This document shows, in pieces, positions 2,321-63,407 of a stretch of DNA of 64,000 bases (positions are counted from its first letter, which is position 1; each line of letters starts with the position of its first letter). A program made the translations under genes and the position numbers. The stretch is from contig CAWAPY010000014.1 in the NCBI GenBank assembly GCA_963784055.1, positions 395,634 to 459,633 on the forward strand, in the 5' to 3' direction. The stretch comes from an uncultured Actinomycetota bacterium (GTDB taxonomy: Bacteria; Actinomycetota; UBA4738; HRBIN12). The notes under the pieces are model-generated. The model was not told the DNA's origin and made no database searches. It was given only the letters and a program-made list of their open reading frames with translations.

Positions 2321-3510
2321 CGATCGCCACCACGCTCCCCGATGCGCGTGGCCGGTTCGGCACCTACGGCGGGCGGTACGTCCCCGAGGTGCTGATCCCC
2401 GCGCTGGATGAGCTCGCCGAGGCATGGGCGGAGCTCCGCGATGACGCCGGCTTCCGGGCGGAGCTCTCGATGCTGTCGGAAACCTTCGTCGGCCGTCCCA
2501 CACCGATCACGCGAGCGGATCGCCTGTCCGCACAGCTCGGCTACGAGATCTGGCTGAAGCGCGAGGACCTCGCGCACACCGGCGCGCACAAGATCAACAA
2601 CGCCCTCGGGCAGGCGTTGCTCGCGAAGCGGCTCGGGAAGGAGCGGATCATCGCCGAGACCGGCGCCGGGATGCACGGCGTCGCGACCGCGACCGCGTGC
2701 GCCCTGCTCGGGCTCCCGTGCGTCGTGTACATGGGAGAGGAGGACACCCACCGACAGGCGCCGAACGTGTCGCGGATGCAGCTCCTCGGCGCCGAGGTGG
2801 TCCCGGTGACGGCGGGCTCGAAGACGCTCAAGGAAGCCGTGAACGAGGCGCTCCGGGACTGGGCCGCGTCGGTCCGGACGACCCACTACATCATCGGCTC
2901 CGTGGTGGGGCCGCACCCCTTCCCGGTGCTCGTCCGCGATCTCCAGCGCGTCATCGGCGACGAGGCGCGCCCCCAGTTCAGCGACGCGACCGGGGGCGCC
3001 GACCCCGACGTGGTCGCGGCCTGCGTCGGCGGCGGCAGCAACGCGATCGGGATGTTCACCGCGTTCGTGGGCGCCCCGGGGATCCGGCTTATCGGCGTGG
3101 AGGCCGGCGGTCGTGGCTCCGGATTGGGCGAGCACTGCTCGTCGCTAACGCAGGGACAACCCGGGATCCTCCACGGCGCGATGAGCTATCTGCTGCAGGA
3201 CGATGAGGGTCAGGTCGCGCTGACCCACTCGATCTCGGCCGGACTCGACTACCCGGGCGTGGGACCGGAGCACGCCTACCTGCGCGACGCCGGACTCGCC
3301 GAGTACGTGAGCGCCTCCGACGACGACGCGCTCGAGGGGTTCCAGGCGCTGTCCAGGAGCGAAGGCATCATCCCGGCGCTCGAGCCGGCGCACGTGATCG
3401 GGTGGCTGCTCCACCGACCATTGGAGCCGGGAACGTCGATCCTCGTGTGCCTTTCCGGGCGGGGCGACAAGGACCTCGACACGGTGCGCGCGAGCCTCGG
3501 GATCTCCTAG
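2317..3510 (+). CDS. trpB: tryptophan synthase beta chain
   Basis: Intact 397-aa ORF. It carries [48 protein letters not shown] (the PLP lysine context), [11 protein letters not shown] and [10 protein letters not shown]. Confidence 0.97.
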
Positions 3511-4281
3511 ATGGGCCGGCTCGAGGACGCCCTGCGTGCCCGGCGCGACGCCGGAGGACGCGCGTTCGTGCCGTACGTCACGGGCGGGTATCCCGGCGTG
3601 GACGCCGGCCTCCTCCGCCGGCTGGCGACCGCGGGAGCGGATGCGATCGAGGTCGGCATCCCGTTCTCCGATCCCGTGATGGACGGCGGCGTGATCCAGG
3701 AGGCCTCGGCGGAGGCCCTGCGTGCCGGTGTCCGGCTCGGCGACGTCCTCGACACGATCCGCGAGGCCGCGATCGAGGTGCCCGTCGCCGTGATGACGTA
3801 CGTGAACCCGGTGGTCCGGCATGGGGTCGCGTCCTTCCTCGATGGGGCCGTCGCCGCCGGGGTGGCCGGCGTGATCGTTCCGGACCTCCCCGTCGACGAG
3901 TCGGACGAGCTCGAACGGGAAGCGACCGCTCGCGGGGTCGACGCGGTGCTCCTGGCGGCGCCCGGAACCCGCGGGGAGCGGCTGGCGGAGATCGGACGAA
4001 GGTCGCGTGGCTTCGTCTACTGCGTGGCCACCTACGGGGTGACCGGGGCACGGGACCGCGTGGAGGACACGGCCGGGGCCATCGTCGCCGCCCTCCGCCC
4101 GCTCACGGACCTCCCGCTGCTCTTGGGCGTGGGGATCGGAACGCCCGCACAGGCGGCGGAGGCCTCTGCCTTCGCGGACGGGGTGGTGGTGGGGAGCGCC
4201 CTGATGAGCAGGGTCGTCGGCGGGGACGTGGAAGGGGCCGTCCAGCTGGCGGCGGAGTTCCGTCGGGCGATCCCCGCCTGA
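3511..4281 (+). CDS. trpA: tryptophan synthase alpha chain
   Basis: Intact 256-aa ORF that starts directly after the trpB stop. It carries FVPYVTGGYPG, GADAIEVGIPFSDPVMDGGVIQ, VMTYVNPV, GVIVPDLP and GFVYCVATYGVTG. Confidence 0.95.
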   Translation: MGRLEDALRARRDAGGRAFVPYVTGGYPGVDAGLLRRLATAGADAIEVGIPFSDPVMDGGVIQEASAEALRAGVRLGDVLDTIREAAIEVPVAVMTYVNPVVRHGVASFLDGAVAAGVAGVIVPDLPVDESDELEREATARGVDAVLLAAPGTRGERLAEIGRRSRGFVYCVATYGVTGARDRVEDTAGAIVAALRPLTDLPLLLGVGIGTPAQAAEASAFADGVVVGSALMSRVVGGDVEGAVQLAAEFRRAIPA

Positions 4282-4352
4282 GGCATCTCCGTCTCGCCGC
4301 CCCGACGTATGCCATTGCGAAACGGCAGCGGCGATTGGCCAACCGTGGCCGC

Positions 4353-4369
4353 GATGTGATAGTCACATC
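4353..4369. promoter_or_regulatory. candidate operator: inverted repeat GATGTGA-tag-TCACATC upstream of the LIV operon
   Basis: Perfect 7-bp arms with a 3-nt centre, in a locally AT-richer intergenic stretch 34 nt upstream of the ATG at 4403. No protein partner can be assigned. Confidence 0.25.
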
Positions 4370-4402
4370 CAATCTCGGGAAACCGAGGAGAAGGGGGGCT
4401 TC

Positions 4403-5719
4403 ATGAAGCACCGCATATGGTTCAAAGCGCTCGCCCTGATGGCAGTGCTCACGATCGTTGCGTCGGCGTGTGCCGACGACGACGGTGGCGATGGAGGCCC
4501 GGCCGGCGGCGACGTCGACTGTGCGACCGTCGAGTTCGGATGTGTCGAGGTAGGTGCGGACGAGCCGATCAACCTGGGTGCCGCACAGGTGATCAGCGGG
4601 GCGGACGCCTCGCTCGGTCAGGACCAGGTGAACGCGCTCAATCTCGCGATCGACTATCTCGACGAGTCGTTCGACCAGACGCCGGGCACGCTGCTCGACC
4701 ACCCGGTCGAGCTGACGGTCGAGGACGAGCTGTGCTCGGCCGAGGGCGGTCAGACGGCGGGCACGGCGCTCGCTGCGGACACGTCGATCGTCGCGGTGGT
4801 CGGGACGAGCTGCTCGAGCGCGGCGCTCGGCGTCGCGGACACGATCCTCGGCGACAAGGGCATCACGCTCATCTCGGGCTCGAACACGAGCCCGGCGCTG
4901 ACCGATCCCGAGCTGCACAACCCGTTCTACGCCCGGACCGCTCACAACGACCGGATCCAGGGTGCGATCGGTGCCGAGTTCGCGCTGGGCGAAGACCTCG
5001 GCGCCACCACGGCGGCGACGATCGCAGACGAGAGCCCCTACACGCAGGGACTCGTCGGTGCCTTCGAGGCGAACTTCGAGGCCGGGGGCGGCACCTTGAC
5101 CGGGTCGGAGCAGGTCAACTCCGAGGACACCGACTTCAAGCCGGTCCTCAGGTCGTTGGCCGAGCAGGATCCGGACGTCCTGTACTTCCCGATCTTCGTG
5201 GCAGCGTGCACGCTGATCATCAGGCAGGCGCAGGACATCATGCCCGACGCCGAGCTGATCGTGGCTGACGGTTGCCTGTCGAGCGACACCCTGAAGAACG
5301 CGGGAGCTGCCGCGGATGGCGTCTGGGCATCCTCGCCGGACCTGTCGGCGTTCCAGACGAACGAGTTCTACTCGGGCGAGTTCATCCCCGCCTATCAGGA
5401 GGCGTTCGGAACGGAACCGCTCGCGGTGTTCCACGCGCACTCCTTCGACGCCGCGAACGTCGTGTTCGCAGCGATCGAGGAGGTCGCGATCGACAACGGC
5501 GACGGGTCGCTCTCGATCCCTCGCCAGGCACTGCGTGACGCGATCTTCGCCACGAACGGCTACGAGGGCGTCACGGGCGCGATCACGTGCCTCGATACGG
5601 GAGACTGCGCGACGGACGTCACGATCGGTCTGTTCCTGGCTCCCGGCTGGCCGGTCGAGGGCGGCACGGACGATCCTGCCGTGTACACCGACACCAAGTC
5701 GCTGGACGAAGTCCTCTAG
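4403..5719 (+). CDS. branched-chain amino-acid ABC transporter substrate-binding lipoprotein (LivJ/LivK-like)
   Basis: Intact 438-aa ORF with an AAGGGGGG RBS. The lipoprotein signal is MKHRIWFKALALMAVLTIVASAC. The body looks like a type-1 periplasmic-binding fold (VVGTSCSSAA, ITLISGSNTSPALT) and is followed by livHMGF. Confidence 0.9.
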   Translation: MKHRIWFKALALMAVLTIVASACADDDGGDGGPAGGDVDCATVEFGCVEVGADEPINLGAAQVISGADASLGQDQVNALNLAIDYLDESFDQTPGTLLDHPVELTVEDELCSAEGGQTAGTALAADTSIVAVVGTSCSSAALGVADTILGDKGITLISGSNTSPALTDPELHNPFYARTAHNDRIQGAIGAEFALGEDLGATTAATIADESPYTQGLVGAFEANFEAGGGTLTGSEQVNSEDTDFKPVLRSLAEQDPDVLYFPIFVAACTLIIRQAQDIMPDAELIVADGCLSSDTLKNAGAAADGVWASSPDLSAFQTNEFYSGEFIPAYQEAFGTEPLAVFHAHSFDAANVVFAAIEEVAIDNGDGSLSIPRQALRDAIFATNGYEGVTGAITCLDTGDCATDVTIGLFLAPGWPVEGGTDDPAVYTDTKSLDEVL

Positions 5720-55032: not shown

Positions 55033-55122
55033 GTCGGAGTGGCGGAACTTGGTAGACGCGCTAGGTTGAGGGCCTAGTCCCCTTCACAGGGGGTGGGGGT
55101 TCAAATCCCCCCTCCGACACCA
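55033..55122 (+). tRNA. tRNA-Leu(GAG)
   Basis: The acceptor stem is GTCGGAG/CTCCGAC. The anticodon stem CTAGG/CCTAG carries loop TTGAGGG (anticodon GAG). The long variable arm is CCCCT-TCAC-AGGGG, the T-arm is GGGGG-TTCAAAT-CCCCC, and the discriminator A plus CCA are encoded. Confidence 0.9.
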
Positions 55123-56531
55123 CGAAACTGCCACCCCCCAGTCAGTCCGACCTCCTCGAGCGCGACGTTCAGCCGTGGCACGCCGCTCACCGTGACCTCC
55201 AGGTGGTCCGGGTACATGGCGACGGACTCCAGCAGCTCCTCGACGAGGACGCGGCGCTCGAGGTCGGTGGCCTCTGCCCAGAGTCGCTCGACATCCATCT
55301 CCCGGAGGATGCGGGCAACCTCTTCGAACTTGGCGGCCAAGTCCGACAACCGGCTCCGCTCGACCTGGCGCTCCTCTTGGTCGCGACGGACGGCCTGGAT
55401 CTGGCCGCTCAGTCGGGCCTCCTCCTCGGCGAAGATCTCCGCGCTCAGCTTGTCGGCGTAGTAGAGCTCGAGGAGCTTCCGCCGTCGCTCGGCCAGGTCC
55501 TCGATCCGAAGGGTCTTCCCGCGGCCTCGGCGAGGCTCGCCCGCTCCGGAACCGACGGCATTCTTCAGCTCGCGACGGATGGCCTCTTGCAGCTCCTCAT
55601 CCTCGGCGACGAGACGCAGCCCGAGGAGTGCAGCGTGGATCAGTCCTACCGCCGAGCGGGACGGCTGGGAGCAACCTGCGCCCCGGTGCCGGCATCGGTA
55701 CAGAGCGCGTCCCTCGCGCCCGTACCGGATCGTCGCCACGCGACCGCACAGGCCGCACCGCACTCGTCCGGCGAGGACGTGGCGGCTCCGCCTGTGCCAG
55801 GGAGGAGCACCTCTGTGCGCGGCCGCGAACGCCGTCGCGCTGATTAGCGGCTCGTGGTTGCCCGGGTACCACTCACCGTTGAGGAGCACCTCCCCGAGAT
55901 AGATGCGGGAGTGCGCGATCGCCCGGGCCGTGGAGTACTTCACGCCGGTGAGCTCCTCGATCCGGGTGTAGCTGAGACCCTGCGCACGAAGGTCGAAGAT
56001 CCTCCGGACGGTGGGCCCGTCGGCGTTGGGGACCAGCTCGCCGGCGACGAGGTCGTAGCCGAACTTCGGTCGGTTCGTCCACTTGCCCTGACGCGCGGCC
56101 TGGTGCATGCCGAGGCGGACGTTCTCCGCGAGCTGCTCCCGATAGAACTGCGCGAATGCCCCGAGGATGTTGTAGAACATGCGCCCCGTGGCCGAGGAGA
56201 GATCGAGCTTCTCGGTGAAGGAGTGCAGACCCACCTCATGCTTGCCGAGTGTGTCCGCCAGCAGGATCAGGTCACCCAGGTTCCTGGACAGCCGATCCAG
56301 GCGCCACACGAAGACGTTGGATACGTGTCCCTGCTCCACCATCGCGAGGAGCTGTTGGAGGCCGGGCCGCTCGAGGTTCTTGCCCGACCGGCCGGGGTCC
56401 TGGATGACGGTTACGGGTCCGAGGTCGTTGAGCTGCGCATAGGTCCGGAGCTTCTCGGCCTGTCCGTCGATGGAGAAACCCTCGGCCGCCTGCTCCTCGG
56501 TCGAGACCCGGCAGTACGCGACGTTCAACAT
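55101..56531 (-). CDS. large serine recombinase (integrase)
   Basis: Intact 476-aa ORF. The catalytic N-terminus is MLNVAYCRVSTEEQ...VFVWRLDRLSRN. It has a recombinase domain, a zinc-ribbon (RCGLCGR...YRCRHRGAGC) and a C-terminal coiled-coil. Its last 7 codons and stop lie inside the tRNA-Leu(GAG) T-arm and acceptor. Confidence 0.9.
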   Translation of the reverse strand: MLNVAYCRVSTEEQAAEGFSIDGQAEKLRTYAQLNDLGPVTVIQDPGRSGKNLERPGLQQLLAMVEQGHVSNVFVWRLDRLSRNLGDLILLADTLGKHEVGLHSFTEKLDLSSATGRMFYNILGAFAQFYREQLAENVRLGMHQAARQGKWTNRPKFGYDLVAGELVPNADGPTVRRIFDLRAQGLSYTRIEELTGVKYSTARAIAHSRIYLGEVLLNGEWYPGNHEPLISATAFAAAHRGAPPWHRRSRHVLAGRVRCGLCGRVATIRYGREGRALYRCRHRGAGCSQPSRSAVGLIHAALLGLRLVAEDEELQEAIRRELKNAVGSGAGEPRRGRGKTLRIEDLAERRRKLLELYYADKLSAEIFAEEEARLSGQIQAVRRDQEERQVERSRLSDLAAKFEEVARILREMDVERLWAEATDLERRVLVEELLESVAMYPDHLEVTVSGVPRLNVALEEVGLTGGWQFRGVGGGI

Positions 56532-56753: not shown

Positions 56754-57701
56754 TCAAGGGGCATGTCGGGGCGGCACCGCCATGAAACGCGGCGTGGTCG
56801 AGGCGGGGGAGATGCGACGGCGGTGGCCGGCATCGATGAAGTATCGACCGAGGCACCTTGTCGGTCGGTACAGGTCGCGGGGTTGGGCCGGCAGCTCAAA
56901 GAGCGAGATGCGCCCGGCGTCGGTAGGCAGGTGTTGCCACACCGGCCCGAGCACGCCGAACTCGGTCAGGTGCTCCTCGCTCGCCACGTACACGGGCAGC
57001 GACATCGCGAGCGAGTCACGGGCATGGAAAGTCCCGATCGCGTGGCGAAGGGCCGAGCCGACCTCCCCCTCGCGCACCCCCTCCGGAACGATGATGAGGA
57101 GATTCGGAAGCCCGAGAAGGTCTTGCTCCTTCGTCCACCCCGCCGCGAGCCTGAGGTAGCCCTCGAGCTTGCGGGAGAGCGCGCCGAACGCCTCGGTGCC
57201 CCGGTCGTACTCCAGGTAGAACTCGCATGCCCCACCGGAGTGCAGGTATCGCCCGAACCCGTCGAGCTTGACCTCGGCGGCCCTGGTGCGAACCCAGTGC
57301 TCCGGCCGCCAGGTGGTCAGGCAGTGGTCCTTGTGGAACCTGGAGGCCTCGGCGAGCGCACAGAAGAACGCGTTGACCCCGAGCCGGTGGGCGAGGTTCT
57401 GACTCCCTCGGTAGCTCTCATCGGGGATCCAGGAGAGGTCCGAGGCCCGGACACCCTTGGCCTCGGCGATCGCGACGAGACCGGTCTTCGTCAGGAACCA
57501 GCACGCCGGAGGCCTCCCCTCCCCGAAACCCCTCCCCACCGTGAACGATGAGACCAACCCAAGTTCCTTCAGTTCCTTCATCCGGTGTTGGCACCGTCTG
57601 AAGGAACGGAAGTAGAGGCTCTTGATCTGGTGAGTGGAAAGGACCTTGTGTTCGAGAAGGCTGAGCAGGAGAGCATGGTCTCGCTCATCGAGCGAGACCA
57701 T
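56754..57701 (-). CDS. replication-relaxation (Replic_Relax) family protein
   Basis: The internal ATG at 57701 gives 316 aa. They begin MVSLDERDHALLLSLLEHKVLSTHQIKSLYFRSFRRCQHRMKELKELGLVSSF...ACWFLTKTGLVAIAE, the winged-helix N-terminal pattern I associate with this actinobacterial plasmid/integrative-element family. The long ORF upstream of that ATG is Arg-rich and implausible. Confidence 0.7.
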   Translation of the reverse strand: MVSLDERDHALLLSLLEHKVLSTHQIKSLYFRSFRRCQHRMKELKELGLVSSFTVGRGFGEGRPPACWFLTKTGLVAIAEAKGVRASDLSWIPDESYRGSQNLAHRLGVNAFFCALAEASRFHKDHCLTTWRPEHWVRTRAAEVKLDGFGRYLHSGGACEFYLEYDRGTEAFGALSRKLEGYLRLAAGWTKEQDLLGLPNLLIIVPEGVREGEVGSALRHAIGTFHARDSLAMSLPVYVASEEHLTEFGVLGPVWQHLPTDAGRISLFELPAQPRDLYRPTRCLGRYFIDAGHRRRISPASTTPRFMAVPPRHAP

Positions 57702-57703
57702 GC
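57673..57703. repeat. 31-bp perfect palindrome (14-bp arms, 3-nt centre) spanning the Replic_Relax start codon
   Basis: The sequence is GCATGGTCTCGCTC-atc-GAGCGAGACCATGC. The arms are exact reverse complements, and each arm contains an ATG. Confidence 0.9.
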
Positions 57704-58926
57704 GAACGTTCCTTCTGCTCGAACCATATTCTGGGCACAGCCCTCCCCCTCCTTCGGTGGGTGGCCTTCGGCCAAACAGCCCCGTGACCTGCGGCTTTGC
57801 GTCCTCGCGCCCTGCGCTCTCGCGCCGCCCATGCGCCGTTGGCGCGGGAACCACCCGTCCCTTGGACGTGCGTGAGCTCGTGCCAAGGCGCGCGGCCGCA
57901 ACCTGCAGCCTTCCGTGGCTGTTCAGTTCGTGCCGGTGCTCACCTCCTTGTGCTCGCCGCGCTGGCATGCTCCGGCAGGCGTTCGGCCGGGATCGCATCC
58001 CGCCACACCGACTGCGTTCGCGCCGCCTCAGCCTCACCCCGCCTCTGCAGGCGTTTGGTCTCCGTCGGCCGCGGTCCCTCCGTCGCGCGCTTGACCTCCT
58101 CCATCTCCGAGCTCGCCTCCCATGAGGTGCCCGGGTTGGGGGCTCCGGCGCTCCCGTCGGCTCTCGGCCTCGAAGCCCTTGCGTCCGCCTTGGCGATCGC
58201 GAGGACACGGCGTCTCCGCACCGGCCGGCGTTGGCGATTCCTGCCTCCGCAGCCCACGGCAACCTGCTGGCATAACCAAGTGCCGAGACGTGGCCATCTC
58301 TACCCGTACAAAGGCATAGAAGAGGCTCCAATCGTGTCGGCGAGGAGGGGCGAGTTGATGAGGAGCTTTCGGGGAGTCCAGGTGAGGAAGCGTCGTTCGG
58401 ACCGGAGTCGCGCCTTCGGGTAGATGTGGGCGAGACACACCGTGCGATTGATAGAACGTCCCCGCTCGAGATCGCGCGGCGGGACGATGGGAGGAGTGGT
58501 GTGGCGAAGGTGCGAGTGAGCTAGAGCTGTAGCCCGAATTTCCTTCTTGACGCAATTTGCAGAGCCGAGGGACACTCCATCTGACAGGGAAGTGGCCGTC
58601 GAGCGAAGCATGACGAGCGATTCGGGGGCTGCAATGGGGCTGTCCGCTGTGACCATCGATGCCTTCGATCTGTGTGGGTCCGCGCTACGGGTGTCTTGGT
58701 TGCCTCGACGTTCAGCGGCTCGGTCTGCAATCCCTCGAGCCTGCGAGCGGCTGTCCGATTCTCTGCACCCGACAACCACGGACGTGCGTGTTTCGGCGGG
58801 TCGAATGCCGCGTCGATTCCGTTCCAGTGGCTCTGTTAGCGGTTGGGGGACTCTGAGCGTTACGGCTGCAGCCAAGATGGCGGGCATGGGCGCATTCGCA
58901 GCCTGCGGGGGTCCACGGAGGTGACG

Positions 58927-59562
58927 ATGCAGGCTTTGGAGCCGACCGCATACGCCGCCACCATCGCCCGGATGACCGTTGGGGTCGTTCTGATCTTCGC
59001 CGCGCTGTCGAAGGCAGTGGCGATGGATTCGTTCTCGCGTGCCCTTCTAACCTTCCCTGTGACGAAGCAAGCACTTCGAGGGGTGCACTCGGCCCGAGTT
59101 GCGGCGCGGGTGCTTGTGTTGCTGGAGTGCACCCTGGGATCTCTCTTCCTGATTGGCCTATTCATTCGACCCATTCAGTTCCTGATTCTTGTTCTCATGG
59201 CGGGGTTCACGCTCGGGCTCGCCTTAGCGGTGGCGAGTGACGAGGAGACACCGTGCGGCTGTTTCGGTGAAGGGAGCTCGAAACCAGTCACATGGGTCAG
59301 TCTTGCAAGGAACTTCGGGCTTCTTGTGCTTGTCGCAATCGCAGGGCTGAAGACCGAGCTATCTGTGGACGGTCTGATCGCCGCGGCGGCTCCCGAAGTC
59401 GCTGTCGGTTTGCTCGTCACGGATGCGTTGGTAGCGGGATTGACGGTATCGCTGTTGCGTTCCTACGCGCGGCTCCGCTCCAATCCGAGTTTCGTCCAGC
59501 GTGTCCCCGCAGCGCCGGGCCCGGCGCAGAGCGATGTGTGGGAGGGGAGCCGAGAGGTATAG
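58927..59562 (+). CDS. MauE-family membrane protein
   Basis: The ATG at 58927 has GGAGG 6 nt upstream. The 211 aa have 4-5 TM segments, with ETPCGCFGEGS (the CxCFG motif) after the third helix, as in methylamine-utilisation protein MauE. Confidence 0.78.
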   Translation: MQALEPTAYAATIARMTVGVVLIFAALSKAVAMDSFSRALLTFPVTKQALRGVHSARVAARVLVLLECTLGSLFLIGLFIRPIQFLILVLMAGFTLGLALAVASDEETPCGCFGEGSSKPVTWVSLARNFGLLVLVAIAGLKTELSVDGLIAAAAPEVAVGLLVTDALVAGLTVSLLRSYARLRSNPSFVQRVPAAPGPAQSDVWEGSREV

Positions 59563-59564
59563 CG

Positions 59565-60173
59565 ATGTCGGGACTCTGGCTTGCATCGCACGTCCTGCTT
59601 TGGGTTCTTGTGGTTGTGGAGGCCATTCTTCTGATCGCACTGATGCGCCAGGTCGGGACGCTCTTGCTTCGAGTCGGAACGTCGACGGCATTCGACGCTG
59701 GCGGCGGACCCGCGATCGGAGCGGAAGCGCCCTGGGTGCCATTGGAGGCAGGTGACGTTGATGGTGGAACGGATGGCCGGGCTACGATGCTGGTCTTTGT
59801 GTCTCTCGGCTGTGGCATGTGTGACATTCTCGCGCCCGGACTAAGCACTATCGCATCGGCCTACGCGGCATCGTCTCGCGTGTACGCAATCGGTAAGGAG
59901 GGAACGGACTCGCTTGATGCTTGGGCTCGAAACAAGCGGGTACGAGTCCCAGTCCTTTCCCAACCGGACGCGTTTGACGCATACAGCGTGTCAGGAACAC
60001 CGTACGCCTTCGTCATTGATGCCGATGGCGTCGTCCGGGCTAGCGGAGGCGTGAACACCACGGATCAACTGGAGGTTCTTCTCCGCCAGTGCACGAACAC
60101 GGGGAGTCTCTCGTCCGATCGACGAGAGATCCATGCTGTGGCGCGGGGGTTGGATAGAGGAGATCTGTCGTGA
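59565..60173 (+). CDS. MauD-like membrane-anchored thioredoxin-fold protein (CxxC)
   Basis: It starts 2 nt after the previous stop. The N-terminal TM helix plus RQVG (LWLASHVLLWVLVVVEAILLIALMRQVGTLLLRV) resembles MauD. The thioredoxin-like domain carries MLVFVSLGCGMCDIL and GTPYAFVIDADGVV. Confidence 0.78.
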   Translation: MSGLWLASHVLLWVLVVVEAILLIALMRQVGTLLLRVGTSTAFDAGGGPAIGAEAPWVPLEAGDVDGGTDGRATMLVFVSLGCGMCDILAPGLSTIASAYAASSRVYAIGKEGTDSLDAWARNKRVRVPVLSQPDAFDAYSVSGTPYAFVIDADGVVRASGGVNTTDQLEVLLRQCTNTGSLSSDRREIHAVARGLDRGDLS

Positions 60174-60718
60174 GGGACAAGGCGCTCGACGAACTGCTGC
60201 CGTCATCGAACCTAGGGTCTGCCGGAGACGCCTTCGTCGCGCGGTCGCTCTCCTCCTTCGCGAACCGGACGTCGAGAAGAAGTTTCATCGCAGGAGTTGG
60301 CCGCGCCGGCCTCGCAGTCATGGGTGGCGCCTTCCTCTCGCTGTGGCGCATGGAGAGCGCGGCATCGGTTGACTGCGGCGTCGGACATCCAACAACTGCG
60401 CGGTTGAGTTGCCTCTGCACCGACCTGCTCGGGTCAAACAACTGCCCGCAGTGTTGTGGGGGATACTGGACTGTTTGTCAAACGAGCGGCCCGCATACGT
60501 GCCCGTCGCCGTGCGGCGGGGGCGAAACACGGTACTTCAGGACCCGGCTGTACGACTGCTGCAACGCATGCACCAACTGCCAAAACAATGTCGCAGGGTG
60601 CCAGGGTGGAAATGATACGTGCTGCCACGGCGGATACTGCTTCGACAACTGTGGCAATCGAAATGTGAGATGTGTGAGAAAGGTATGCACGAACTCCCTG
60701 TGCATACCCTGCTCTTGA
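60170..60718 (+). CDS. Tat-signal, cysteine-rich secreted protein; possible divergent methylamine-dehydrogenase light-chain (MauA) relative
   Basis: The GTG overlaps the MauD-like stop (GTGA). The leader is long and has a twin-arginine motif NRTSRRSFIAGVGRAGLAVMGG. All 22 Cys lie in the last 114 aa (Cys69 to Cys181). Local strings resemble MauA as I remember it: CLCTDLLGSNNCP, YWTVC, LYDCCN and GYCFD. The ORF call is solid (about 0.9); the family assignment is tentative (about 0.5). Confidence 0.7.
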   Translation: MRDKALDELLPSSNLGSAGDAFVARSLSSFANRTSRRSFIAGVGRAGLAVMGGAFLSLWRMESAASVDCGVGHPTTARLSCLCTDLLGSNNCPQCCGGYWTVCQTSGPHTCPSPCGGGETRYFRTRLYDCCNACTNCQNNVAGCQGGNDTCCHGGYCFDNCGNRNVRCVRKVCTNSLCIPCS

Positions 60719-60800: not shown

Positions 60801-61412
60801 ATGGTGGGAACCATCGGCTTTGCCGGCGGCAAAGCAAGGACGCAGAGGAAGGTCTTTCGGTTTGCGCGACGCATCGCGCTTCCGTACGCGCTGGCATCTA
60901 TCGCCGGTGGGGCGATCCTTGGGCTCGCTGCAGCTCTGGTAGGCGGCTTGGCGCTGCACCAACTTGGTGGTGCGGAGGTTGAGACGTCGGTTGTCGCGTC
61001 CGTCCTGGCCGTTGCCGGCGCTGCGGATGCGTTTGGCATATCGGTCAAGCGGTTTTCTCGTCGAAGGCAGGTGCCGCTGTCTTGGAAACACGTCTTCCCA
61101 CCTCCGATGAGCGCAACGCTCTATGGATTCACGCTTGGGGTTGGGGTAGTAACGGCAATCTACTATTGGAGCTTCCTCGCGTTTCTCGTCGCCGTCGCCG
61201 TGACGGCGAATCCTGCCTTGGGGGTGACCGCCGGCATCGCCTTCAGCCTCGGCCGAGCGGCGTTGTCGCTCCTCGCGGTGGCAGCTCGTGATGAGTGGGT
61301 GATTGACAGGTGGTCAGATCGAATCGAAGGCGTGCTCTCTCGCAACAGATGGTTTCCGCGGCTCGTGAGCGCAACGGCGATGTGGGCGGCGGCGTGGGTG
61401 ATCATCGCTTAG
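60801..61412 (+). CDS. polytopic membrane protein of unknown family (5-6 TM, no Cys)
   Basis: The 203-aa ORF is co-directional, starting 82 nt after the Cys-rich gene. Its hydrophobic segments are ALASIAGGAILGLAAALVGGLAL, VVASVLAVAGAADAFGI, LYGFTLGVGVVTAIYYWSFLAFLVAVAV, GVTAGIAFSLGRAALSLLAVA and LVSATAMWAAAWVIIA. No motif is recognised, and the start is uncertain. Confidence 0.55.
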   Translation: MVGTIGFAGGKARTQRKVFRFARRIALPYALASIAGGAILGLAAALVGGLALHQLGGAEVETSVVASVLAVAGAADAFGISVKRFSRRRQVPLSWKHVFPPPMSATLYGFTLGVGVVTAIYYWSFLAFLVAVAVTANPALGVTAGIAFSLGRAALSLLAVAARDEWVIDRWSDRIEGVLSRNRWFPRLVSATAMWAAAWVIIA

Positions 61413-61488: not shown

Positions 61489-62083
61489 ATGAGGGTGTTG
61501 ACCTTGCCCAAGGATCTGTCGGATGGCGAGAGGACGTTCGAGGTCTTCTACGCCGAACACTTCGAACAGGTTGCCCGCGTGGCATTTCCCCTGGTGGACT
61601 CGAGAGAGGAGGCGTTCGACATCACCCAGGAAGCGTTTCTGCGGACCTGGGCGCAGTGGTCCCGGTTGGGCGCGAGTCGATCGAGATCCCTGGCGTTTCA
61701 CGATGCGGGTTGCCATCAACCTCGCCACCAGTCGGCTCCGACGCGTTCTCCGGTTCCGACACAGGATTCCGCGGCTGCTCACTCAGGAACAAAGCCCCTC
61801 CGCTGAGGACGTTGCGACCACTCGCATGGAAGTCATCGAGGCGCTAAGGGGGCTGTCACCACGCCAGCGGGTGGCCGTCGTCCTGTGCGAAGGTCTTGGC
61901 CTCAGCTCCGCCGAGGCAGCATCGCTGTTGAAGATCTCCGACACCACTCTGAGGGTCCACCTGGCCCGGGGGCGCGAGAGGCTGAGACGGGCATACGGAC
62001 CAGACGATGACGCTTCGCGCGACGAGCAAAGAACGGCCCACGAGGATTCGATCGGGAGGCCAAAGGATGCCAACAGGAGATGA
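61489..62083 (+). CDS. ECF-type sigma-70 family RNA polymerase sigma factor (one apparent frameshift ~61665)
   Basis: Region 2 is FEVFYAEHFEQVARVAFPLVDSREEAFDITQEAFLRTWAQWSRL, then (second frame) RDPWRFTMRVAINLATSRLRR. Region 4 is ALRGLSPRQRVAVVLCEGLGLSSAEAASLLKISDTTLRVHLARGRERLRRAY. Confidence 0.85.
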
Positions 62084-63407
62084 ATCGAGATTCGGCCAAG
62101 AGCTAAGAGATCGCCTCGCAAGGACAAGCTTCGAGGACGATCTTGCTGACCTCCGAGAGCGCCGGAATCGACGAAGGACCGCAAGCCGAACAGCCGCAGC
62201 CACGGTCGCATTGCTCGTGTCGGTCGGGGCCGGCGTGCTCGTATGGGATGCGTTCCGCCCTCTCGGAGGCGGGAATGAGCGGCGTGAAAGCATTGCGACG
62301 CCAGGCCCGGAAGTCGCGGCCGCTGGAACAGTTCCGGAGGGCCGGTTGGTAGTCCGAACCGGATCAGAGCTCGCGCTCGTTGCGTCGGGCCGGAGCCAGG
62401 CGACGCGGCTCGCATCTGCGGATCCTCTGGAGTACACCATGTCGCCCGACGGGACCACCGTGGCGGGGAGGTTGGCTCGCCGAGAGGACTCGGGGCTGTT
62501 TCGGCCGTTCGCTCTCGAGCTGATAGACGCGAGCACCGGGCAGCGCGAGGTCCTTACGGAAGCCGGACCTCAAGAGGCATTCGGTCTTGTTATCTGGTCA
62601 CCCGACGGCCAACGCCTTGCCTACATCCGCGGCGAATGGGGCCGCGATGTCACGCACGGAGCGTTCCCGGGAGGAGAGCCAAGAGTACAGCACCCCTGTG
62701 TCATCGCGGTCGATGGCGCTTCCAGCACTTGCTATCCGGAACTGGACCCGGTACTTTCAATCGCCTGGTCCCCCGATGGAGGTTCCCTGTGGCTGGGATC
62801 GGGATTCTCCATCCGGGTTCTCGACGTCGCTACGGGAGCCGTGTCGACAGCGGTGCCGGAAAACGGCGGGCCCGAGGTGCTGAAGGCGCTTGAGCAGCTC
62901 GGATTCGCCGGTGTGGAGAGTGTCCAATTTGTTGACCCTGCGCCGTCCAGCAGCGGCGAGTTCGTCGCTGCTGTCGCCTTCTTCGAAACGACATCCGGCC
63001 GAAGCATGTCTGTTCCAATGATCTTCGACGCAGCCGACGGCTCACTGCGAGCAACGGGCATGGCGAACCCCGACCTCTCTCAGTCGGCTTGGTCGCCGAC
63101 GAAGGACATGTTCGCCTACTCGACGGGCGTCGTCGGCATTTCGCGGCCCGGTGACCCACCGCTGGGTGTGCGGGTGCTCGCGCCTTCTGGTGACGACCAG
63201 CTCTTGGTCTCGACTGCAGACATTCCGAACATCGAAGGGGAGAGCGACCCCTTCATCGTTCGTCTGAAATGGAGTCCGTCCGGTGAGTGGCTTGCCATCG
63301 GCGGCCGCGAGCAGATCACGATCGTGGGTGCTGCCGGGGAATCTGTACAGACAGTAGACCCGTTCGAGCCGTTTGAAGACAGCGAGTTGCTCGACTGGGG
63401 GAGGTAG
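62067..63407 (+). CDS. single-pass membrane protein with extracytoplasmic TolB/WD40-like beta-propeller (anti-sigma-like position)
   Basis: The ATG at 62067 follows GGGAGG and overlaps the sigma gene end. After about 40 cytoplasmic residues comes a TM helix TAAATVALLVSVGAGVLVW. Repeats then follow with MSPDG, WSPDGQRLAY, WSPDGGSLW, WSPTKDMFAY and WSPSGEWLA. No zinc-binding anti-sigma motif is present. An alternative start is 62007. Confidence 0.75.
   Translation: MPTGDESRFGQELRDRLARTSFEDDLADLRERRNRRRTASRTAAATVALLVSVGAGVLVWDAFRPLGGGNERRESIATPGPEVAAAGTVPEGRLVVRTGSELALVASGRSQATRLASADPLEYTMSPDGTTVAGRLARREDSGLFRPFALELIDASTGQREVLTEAGPQEAFGLVIWSPDGQRLAYIRGEWGRDVTHGAFPGGEPRVQHPCVIAVDGASSTCYPELDPVLSIAWSPDGGSLWLGSGFSIRVLDVATGAVSTAVPENGGPEVLKALEQLGFAGVESVQFVDPAPSSSGEFVAAVAFFETTSGRSMSVPMIFDAADGSLRATGMANPDLSQSAWSPTKDMFAYSTGVVGISRPGDPPLGVRVLAPSGDDQLLVSTADIPNIEGESDPFIVRLKWSPSGEWLAIGGREQITIVGAAGESVQTVDPFEPFEDSELLDWGR

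Follow-up and report, generated by a model that had tools for sequence, protein, structure and literature searches.

Methylamine dehydrogenase (MADH) carries tryptophan tryptophylquinone (TTQ), a cofactor made from two Trp residues of its light chain, MauA, and the mau operon of Paracoccus denitrificans is ordered mauE-mauD-mauA. MauE homologs can replace DsbB in Escherichia coli, with their CXC motif being essential, and MauD has been argued to act like DsbA (bioRxiv 10.64898/2026.03.05.709764). In Streptomyces strains that lack mau clusters, decRiPPter detected homologs of mauE and mauD beside genes encoding at least 8 Cys residues and proposed these regions as candidate natural-product clusters (PMC7794033). 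Here, we analyzed a 64,000-nucleotide stretch of contig CAWAPY010000014.1 from an uncultured Actinomycetota bacterium (the window), in which a gene encoding a Cys-rich protein follows mauE- and mauD-like genes. An original prediction, made from the sequence alone, had described the product as a light-chain-like protein in which, if the proposed alignment were right, Tyr would replace one of the two TTQ Trp residues. Our comparisons lead us to favor another reading, namely, that the protein is probably an all-disulfide, private client of the MauE/MauD folding pair that is exported by the twin-arginine translocation (Tat) route, has neither TTQ nor a dehydrogenase partner, and acts with a protein of five transmembrane segments (5-TM protein) under the control of an extracytoplasmic function (ECF) sigma factor.

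Translation of the open reading frame (ORF) confirmed the composition that had been predicted for this protein. All 22 Cys residues fall between Cys69 and Cys181 of the precursor (residues 69, 81, 83, 92, 95, 96, 103, 111, 115, 130, 131, 134, 137, 144, 151, 152, 157, 161, 168, 173, 178, and 181), and Trp100 (TGG, nucleotides 60467 to 60469) is the only Trp beyond the leader, with the precursor's other Trp, Trp59, lying within it. Tyr156, the residue proposed to take the place of the second TTQ Trp, is encoded by TAC at nucleotides 60635 to 60637, as had been described. If the precursor is cut after Ala64-Ala65-Ser66, the mature protein would be 116 residues long, and Cys would make up ~19% of it, which matches the earlier estimate and is far beyond chance. 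With 7 acidic and 8 basic residues, the mature protein carries almost no net charge.

The family to which this protein belongs is small. A word-indexed search of 5.8 billion proteins retrieved 7 relatives, and only 7 clusters were found when 1.84 billion cluster representatives were searched exhaustively with a profile; with a second profile search, the family grew to ~22 sequences plus one locus from a metagenome-assembled genome (MAG). When 185,579 species genomes were scanned with an 8-sequence alignment, a member was found in a single genome, an Actinomycetota MAG; searches of PLSDB plasmids and IMG/VR viral sequences found no family member, and literature searches found no description of the family. 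The homologs share 27 to 88% identity (n = 22), and Trp100, Gly155, Tyr156, Asp129, and 13 Cys residues are invariant down to 27% identity. Since 22 homologs over this range of identity keep Trp100, Gly155, Tyr156, and the 13 Cys residues, the ORF is a real gene. The original prediction had proposed examining whether Trp100 and Tyr156 are conserved, and both are present in every one of the 22 homologs; other members carry 2 to 5 Trp residues, none of which is conserved besides Trp100. The SRRxFL Tat motif and the A-x-A site are also conserved in the family, whose product is a conserved domain of 116 to 145 residues.

The number of Cys residues per member is 16, 18, 20, 22, 23, 24, or 26 and is even in 21 of the 22 sequences, with P0130 (23 Cys) being the single member with an odd count. 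Cys columns are also gained and lost together: Cys69 goes with Cys83, Cys137 goes with Cys152, and Cys115 closely tracks Cys181. Because the parity is even and Cys residues are gained and lost in pairs, we interpret the pattern as an all-disulfide signature; as judged from the alignment, it gives no hint of free thiols, of metal ligands, or of an unpaired Cys for a Cys-Trp cross-link. In one member, P0133 (163 residues), the family match ends at about residue 105 and is followed by an Arg/Leu-rich tail, such that this sequence looks like a frameshifted copy.

The mau-like setting that had been predicted for the Cys-rich gene was borne out by the MauE- and MauD-like genes directly upstream of it. 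The match of the MauE-like protein to PF07291 scores 76.8 bits relative to a cut-off of 27; the ORF opens at 58843, and we placed its start at 58927 based on the length of its orthologs. The CGC motif of the MauE-like protein is present in all 9 loci examined, in 6 of which it is followed by FG, and the CxxC motif of the MauD-like protein is likewise present in 9 of 9. The thioredoxins of all 7 modules compared match TIGR02661 (62 to 104 bits; E values of 5e-17 to 7e-30) over model positions 3 to 177 of 189, and this model is the best by a wide margin over other thioredoxin models. Because all 7 score below the equivalog cut-off of 188.6 bits, we refer to them as MauD-like rather than as MauD. 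The Cys-rich gene thus sits at the "A" position of a mauE-mauD-mauA-like cassette. In 4 loci, its GTG or ATG start overlaps the stop codon of the MauD-like gene by 4 nucleotides (window, 60170 to 60173; L001, 9092 to 9095; L006, 10001 to 10004; L011, 8001 to 8004), which suggests that the synthesis of a folding catalyst and that of its client are translationally coupled.

The leader of the Cys-rich precursor also resembles that of MauA. Its landmarks are Asp20 and Ala31, at positions −16 and −5 relative to the twin arginines, the sequence T34-S35-R36-R37-S-F-I, and Ala64-Ala65-Ser66 before the predicted cut. When the leader profiles of the two families were compared with hhalign, the match had a probability of 97%, and the n-region upstream of the Tat motif by itself gave a P value of 0.001 (0 of 80 permutations), although this division into n- and h-regions fits MauA imperfectly because the MauA leader contains two RR pairs. 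Positions counted from the twin arginines provide cleaner evidence: Asp at −16 and Ala at −5 are each found in 22 family sequences, with the Asp missing from two truncated N termini of the family, and in 107 of 114 MauA precursors. When 2,500 six-frame segments were scored with a hidden Markov model (HMM) of the MauA leader, the top ranks went to the window member and the 13 related loci, with family scores of 16 to 25 bits compared to 11.6 for the next unrelated segment. Two caveats apply to these leader comparisons: the generic Tat core provides much of the score, with TorA scoring 26.5 relative to 30.6 for MauA, and an unrelated Tat peptide in L006 also reaches 16.6 bits. The conserved n-region positions −16, −12, −8/−9, and −5 show helical spacing (window, 60170 to 60280; MauA precursors P0008 to P0127). 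These conserved residues may be what the MauE/MauD machinery, or else a Tat chaperone, recognizes. Taken together, these comparisons make kinship with mauEDA at the level of the cassette and the leader likely, albeit not proven, and mauE-mauD-mauA and this cassette (E, D, and leader) appear to have a common origin.

The Paracoccus MauA strings on which the original prediction relied are genuine, as the Paracoccus sequence from which they come is identical to PDB 1mg2_B. Homology between the mature domain and MauA was not demonstrated by Pfam, HMM, hhalign, or Foldseek analyses. Scans of the window protein against Pfam and NCBIfam gave no match at an E value of ≤1, and a PADLOC scan gave no match. 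PF02975 matches 120 of the 120 MauA relatives that we retrieved, whereas it matched none of the 22 family members even at an E value of ≤10. Searches of all PDB sequences with phmmer and with the family profile in hmmsearch returned no chain of MADH, aromatic amine dehydrogenase (AADH), or quinohemoprotein amine dehydrogenase (QHNDH), and the best PDB sequence match was at chance level (E = 1.2). The best E value obtained in a BLASTP comparison with MauA of P. denitrificans was 0.66, and a MauA HMM run with filters off scored P0131 at 8.7 bits and gave negative scores to 21 of the 22 members.

For profile comparison by hhalign, we used a reference alignment of 117 MauA sequences, in all of which Trp57 and Trp108 are invariant. 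The whole family matched this alignment with a P value of 0.02, a probability of 2.3%, and a score of 18.6, compared to 18.3 for the reversed control, and 4 of 150 column-permuted MauA alignments reached the whole-family score. The short (16- to 18-Cys) subfamily gave a P value of 0.11, whereas the P0131-like subfamily gave a borderline similarity spanning MauA positions 34 to 77 (P = 0.004; 0 of 100 permutations; probability of 8%; score of 22.6 versus 17.1 for the reversed control). In the register of this borderline match, C-[CS]-G-G-x4-C of MauA (positions 38 to 46) is aligned with C95-C-G-G-x4-C103, and YRDCC is aligned with LYDCC. MauA Trp57 then lies opposite the non-conserved Cys111/Pro112, and Trp100 lies opposite MauA Leu43, which leaves the proposed equivalence of Trp100 with Trp57 unsupported. 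The proposed equivalence of Tyr156 with Trp108 fares no better, since Tyr156-Cys157 comes to lie opposite Trp108-Cys109 only when the hhalign alignment is extended greedily, at zero confidence. The alignment in which a TTQ Trp is replaced by Tyr does not survive formal comparison.

Structure prediction, which the original prediction had also recommended, did not reveal a light chain. The AlphaFold2 (AF2) model of the protein had a mean predicted local distance difference test (pLDDT) score of 39 when 8 sequences were used and 65.8 when 22 were used, the latter with a predicted template modeling score (pTM) of 0.61. In a Foldseek comparison with the PDB, no MADH or AADH chain was matched (best E = 2.5; TM score ≤ 0.22), a result whose weight is limited by the medium confidence of the model, and a comparison with BFVD gave no match. 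The co-varying pairs Cys69-Cys83, Cys137-Cys152, and Cys115 with Cys181 do not fit the disulfide map of MauA (UniProt P22619), which we take to be 23-88, 29-61, 36-121, 38-86, 46-77, and 78-109. As far as these sequence and model comparisons go, a Trp-to-Tyr variant of TTQ is without supporting evidence, and the mature client appears either to have diverged beyond recognition or to have been replaced.

The claim that canonical TTQ cannot form in this protein did hold, because a second conserved Trp, MauG, and MauB are all absent. No CxxCH (c-type heme) motif is present in ORFs of at least 120 residues in the window, and no heme-motif, MauB, or MauG gene was found in the 13 related loci, whose gene tables lack PF06433 and PF03150. 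None of the loci encodes an amicyanin, a radical S-adenosylmethionine (radical-SAM) enzyme, or a flavoprotein.

All loci whose flanks are long enough share a module that comprises MauE, the MauD-like protein, the Cys-rich protein, the 5-TM protein, an ECF sigma factor, and an anti-sigma factor (Table 1); in L003, the sigma pair is inverted yet still adjacent. The 5-TM protein contains an invariant N-terminal MV.T sequence and a QVP..W...F.......LYG..LG.G motif (alignment A5) and has no match in Pfam, NCBIfam, PADLOC, or the PDB. In the window, the frame of the sigma factor gene changes near 61667 to 61677, based on tblastn comparison with the intact 185-residue ortholog of L001, and the gene either carries a frameshift mutation, which would make it a pseudogene, or was assembled incorrectly at this point. 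The start of the anti-sigma-like gene was placed at 62067 based on alignment A7, and the profile of its propeller matches WD40/TolB-type propellers in the PDB. We considered this propeller as a MADH heavy chain and rejected it, since it is WD40/TolB-like and MauB is not among its best 60 PDB matches. The short subfamily has a YknX_C-like anti-sigma ectodomain in place of the WD40/PD40 propeller and, between the 5-TM and sigma genes, a gene for an antibiotic biosynthesis monooxygenase (ABM)-like protein of 91 to 93 residues (L006, 11132 to 11413; L008, 9115 to 9390; L013, 3142 to 3423). Alignment of the upstream regions revealed no clear shared promoter.

Table 1. Features of the window surrounding the Cys-rich gene
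Feature	Position	Strand	Evidence or remark
tRNA-Leu (GAG)	55033..55122	+	ARAGORN; abuts recombinase gene
Large serine recombinase	55101..56531	-	Pfam Resolvase 4e-39, Zn_ribbon_recom, Recombinase; NCBIfam CcrB/XisF-like
Replication-relaxation (Replic_Relax) protein	56754..58331	-	PF13814, 1.6e-34
MauE-like membrane protein, DsbB-like	58927..59562	+	PF07291, 2.5e-21; CGC-FG at residues 110-114
MauD-like membrane-anchored thioredoxin-fold protein	59565..60173	+	TIGR02661, 1.8e-18; CGMC motif
Cys-rich precursor gene	60170..60718	+	GTG start; 182 aa; 22 Cys
Long Tat leader of Cys-rich precursor, residues 1-66	60170..60367	+	Read directly from sequence; predicted cleavage
Mature domain (116 aa, 22 Cys) and stop codon	60368..60718	+	No Pfam, NCBIfam, or PDB match
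Cys-free membrane protein, ~200 aa, ~5 TM	60801..61412	+	In every locus with enough flank; adjoins Cys-rich gene
ECF sigma factor gene, split over two frames	61489..62083	+	Sigma70_r2 in one ORF, r4_2 in the other
Anti-sigma-like membrane protein with extracytoplasmic WD40/PD40 beta-propeller	62067..63407	+	Weak Pfam PD40/WD40; NCBIfam anti-sigma, 0.0015

The genes upstream of the module point to a mobile element. The tRNA-Leu gene is likely the site at which the element carrying the module integrated. The G+C content, 0.68 upstream, drops to ~0.61 between ~58.5 kb and the end of the window, and the region has the appearance of an integrated mobile element that extends past the window. A Replic_Relax-like protein gene adjoins the module in L010, Replic_Relax genes are also present in L003 and L009, and other loci with long flanks carry genes for serine or tyrosine recombinases, Replic_Relax proteins, TrwC relaxase, HTH_17 excisionase-like proteins, and transposases. 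The module is thus cargo of an integrative element. Further Cys-rich genes were observed near some modules (L006, 13633 to 15104 and 16033 to 16488; also L007): a second, different module of MauE, a thioredoxin-like protein, and a 95-residue, 14-Cys Tat peptide is located a few kilobases downstream of the first, and another similar Cys-rich Tat peptide gene precedes a gene for a 907-residue FtsX-type permease. In L011, a heavy-metal (HMA) P-type ATPase gene (2712 to 5246) lies ~1.4 kb upstream of the module, a position that is possibly incidental.

The sequences show which genes are present, their motifs and conservation, the parity and co-variation of the Cys residues, and the lack of MauB and MauG; from these, we infer an export route, a cleavage event, a direction of oxidation, and roles for the membrane protein and the sigma pair as follows. 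The precursor would be exported by means of its ~66-residue twin-arginine leader and cut by signal peptidase after A-x-A/S, and the ~116-residue mature domain would then be locked by ~11 disulfides. The MauD-like thioredoxin, through its CGMC motif, would introduce or shuffle the disulfides of the client, and the MauE-like protein, through its CGC motif, would re-oxidize the MauD-like protein and pass electrons to quinone as in DsbB. The product would be a compact, all-disulfide extracytoplasmic protein that acts with the co-inherited 5-TM protein, which could be its partner, receptor, or immunity factor, and the adjacent ECF sigma/anti-sigma pair probably governs expression. That maturation of the client depends on MauE and MauD is suggested by gene adjacency, the 4-nucleotide overlap, and Cys parity. 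Most simply, Trp100 and Tyr156 would be core aromatics in a small fold without the usual hydrophobic core.

Several observations sit less comfortably with this proposal. The invariance of Trp100 and Gly155-Tyr156 would also be expected of a cross-link or an active site, and in the medium-confidence AF2 model, Tyr156 adjoins a low-confidence stretch (model residues 96 to 99). An ABM-type monooxygenase-like gene is present within the module of the short subfamily. Tat export usually implies that folding or cofactor insertion precedes export, so the Tat route is an awkward fit with disulfide formation after export, though MauA has the same feature. Finally, any function proposed for the mature Cys-rich protein would be a guess.

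One such function is that of a secreted, bacteriocin- or toxin-like antagonist for which the 5-TM protein serves as the immunity factor; the element would carry this pair, along with the machinery that folds it, for competition or addiction. Wherever the flanks suffice, the inheritance of the Cys-rich gene is closely linked to that of a small, polytopic membrane protein without Cys, mobile-element genes are present wherever flanks are long, ECF-sigma-regulated expression is plausible for such a system, and decRiPPter flagged MauE/MauD together with Cys-rich precursors in Streptomyces (PMC7794033). On the other hand, the proteins show no similarity to known bacteriocin, toxin, or immunity families, the mature domain is near neutral rather than cationic, and no dedicated exporter or peptidase is present. 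We therefore regard an antagonist as unlikely, while noting that it is compatible with an all-disulfide client of MauE and MauD and would refine rather than oppose that reading. A metal- or cluster-binding protein (metallothionein-like, iron-sulfur, or copper storage) exported by Tat, with its thiols kept reduced by the MauD-like protein, would account for the Tat route, which is typical of cofactor-loaded proteins, and for the high Cys content; similarity to the AhpC/TSA, Redoxin, and ResA reductase families is also seen in the MauD-like proteins, and L011 has its heavy-metal ATPase gene near the module. Against this stand the even parity across 16 to 26 Cys residues and the pairwise gain and loss of columns, both of which point to disulfides, the behavior of MauE as an oxidant in such functional tests as exist, the absence of conserved His or Met ligands, and the lack of a match to ferredoxin, HiPIP, or Csp families, such that we give a metal-binding function only the barest likelihood.

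The second option raised by the original prediction was a true but very divergent homolog of the MADH light chain bearing another cofactor or cross-link, for example, between Trp100 and Tyr156, made without MauG. The order of the E, D, and client genes and the MauD-specific thioredoxin match mau clusters, the leader is MauA-like down to Asp(−16) and Ala(−5), Trp100 and Tyr156 are invariant, and some modules include the ABM monooxygenase-like gene. The borderline similarity of one subfamily to MauA 34 to 77 and the placement of Tyr156-Cys157 opposite Trp108-Cys109, zero-confidence as that extension is, also favor this option. However, the similarity of the whole family is no better than that of the reversed control and is absent in the short subfamily, the preferred register sets MauA Trp57 on a non-conserved position rather than on Trp100, and MauG, MauB, a flavoprotein, and a radical-SAM maturase were found in no locus. 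Moreover, Foldseek produced no match to solved light chains, the disulfide co-variation pattern is unlike that of MauA, and invariant aromatics are common in small disulfide-rich folds. We consider this option very unlikely. A more elaborate version starts from the docking of the MADH light chain onto its propeller heavy chain: a MauA-descended scaffold might carry a redox cofactor or cross-link on Trp100 and Gly155-Tyr156, formed without MauG and perhaps with ABM-like help, and might dock on the anti-sigma propeller. If true, such a propeller-docking scaffold could be a redox- or amine-sensing switch for the ECF sigma factor, but we see no more than a slender chance of this.

If our preferred reading of a disulfide-locked client of MauE and MauD is correct, then the mauE-mauD "disulfide factory" would be a portable cassette that serves clients beyond the TTQ light chain and moves among uncultured Actinomycetota on integrative elements, and its orphan client here, with ~11 disulfides, would probably have a new fold. 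The family would offer a natural test case for how MauE and MauD recognize their clients, with the leader Asp at −16 and Ala at −5 as concrete mutational targets, as well as for why such clients take the Tat route and how a protein with so many disulfides folds. The analysis also corrects the tempting over-interpretation of the protein as a Trp-to-Tyr TTQ variant.

This locus can be compared to several known systems, among them QHNDH. The gamma subunit of QHNDH, which carries cysteine tryptophylquinone (CTQ) and Cys-Asp/Glu thioethers, is a small, Cys-containing, cross-linked amine dehydrogenase subunit, whereas no QHNDH chain was matched by our family profile among PDB sequences at an E value of ≤10, and the loci contain no radical-SAM, flavoprotein, or protease maturation genes. 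The MADH and AADH light chains (MauA; PF02975 and TIGR02659; PDB 1mg2_B, 2bbk_L, and 2agl_D) offer another comparison. Both genes lie directly downstream of mauE- and mauD-type genes, the precursors are similar in size (182 residues here and 188 in MauA), and both have an unusually long Tat leader (~66 and 57 residues, respectively) with Asp and Ala at the same distances from the twin arginines. Both mature domains are also small and Cys rich, and the strings NCP, CCGG, Y-x-DCC, and [WY]-CF recur in them. In contrast, the similarity between the mature domains is without statistical support, the 16 to 26 Cys residues here compare with 12 (six conserved disulfides) in MauA and appear to be paired differently, and the TTQ tryptophans of MauA are without supported counterparts in a family with one invariant Trp. 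The MauB heavy chain, MauG, and amicyanin are missing here, and the genes reside on mobile elements of Actinomycetota rather than in methylotroph mau operons.

The decRiPPter clusters of Streptomyces (PMC7794033) likewise place mauE, and in one case mauD, outside mau clusters beside a small gene for at least 8 Cys residues, and the second module of L006, with its 14-Cys Tat peptide, is of this type. Compared by description, these clusters encode a short peptide, whereas the family described here has a 116- to 145-residue domain and a MauA-type leader. A known counterpart of the cassette itself is the MauE/MauD folding pair (bioRxiv 10.64898/2026.03.05.709764), with which it shares a CGC-FG MauE and a CxxC MauD-like protein encoded next to an exported, multi-disulfide client. 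It differs in that the pair here travels with a private client and a sigma/anti-sigma pair on a mobile element and in that its MauD-like proteins fall well short of the equivalog cut-off (62 to 104 versus 188.6 bits). The MauE/MauD cassette is thus already known, and it is the client that is novel.

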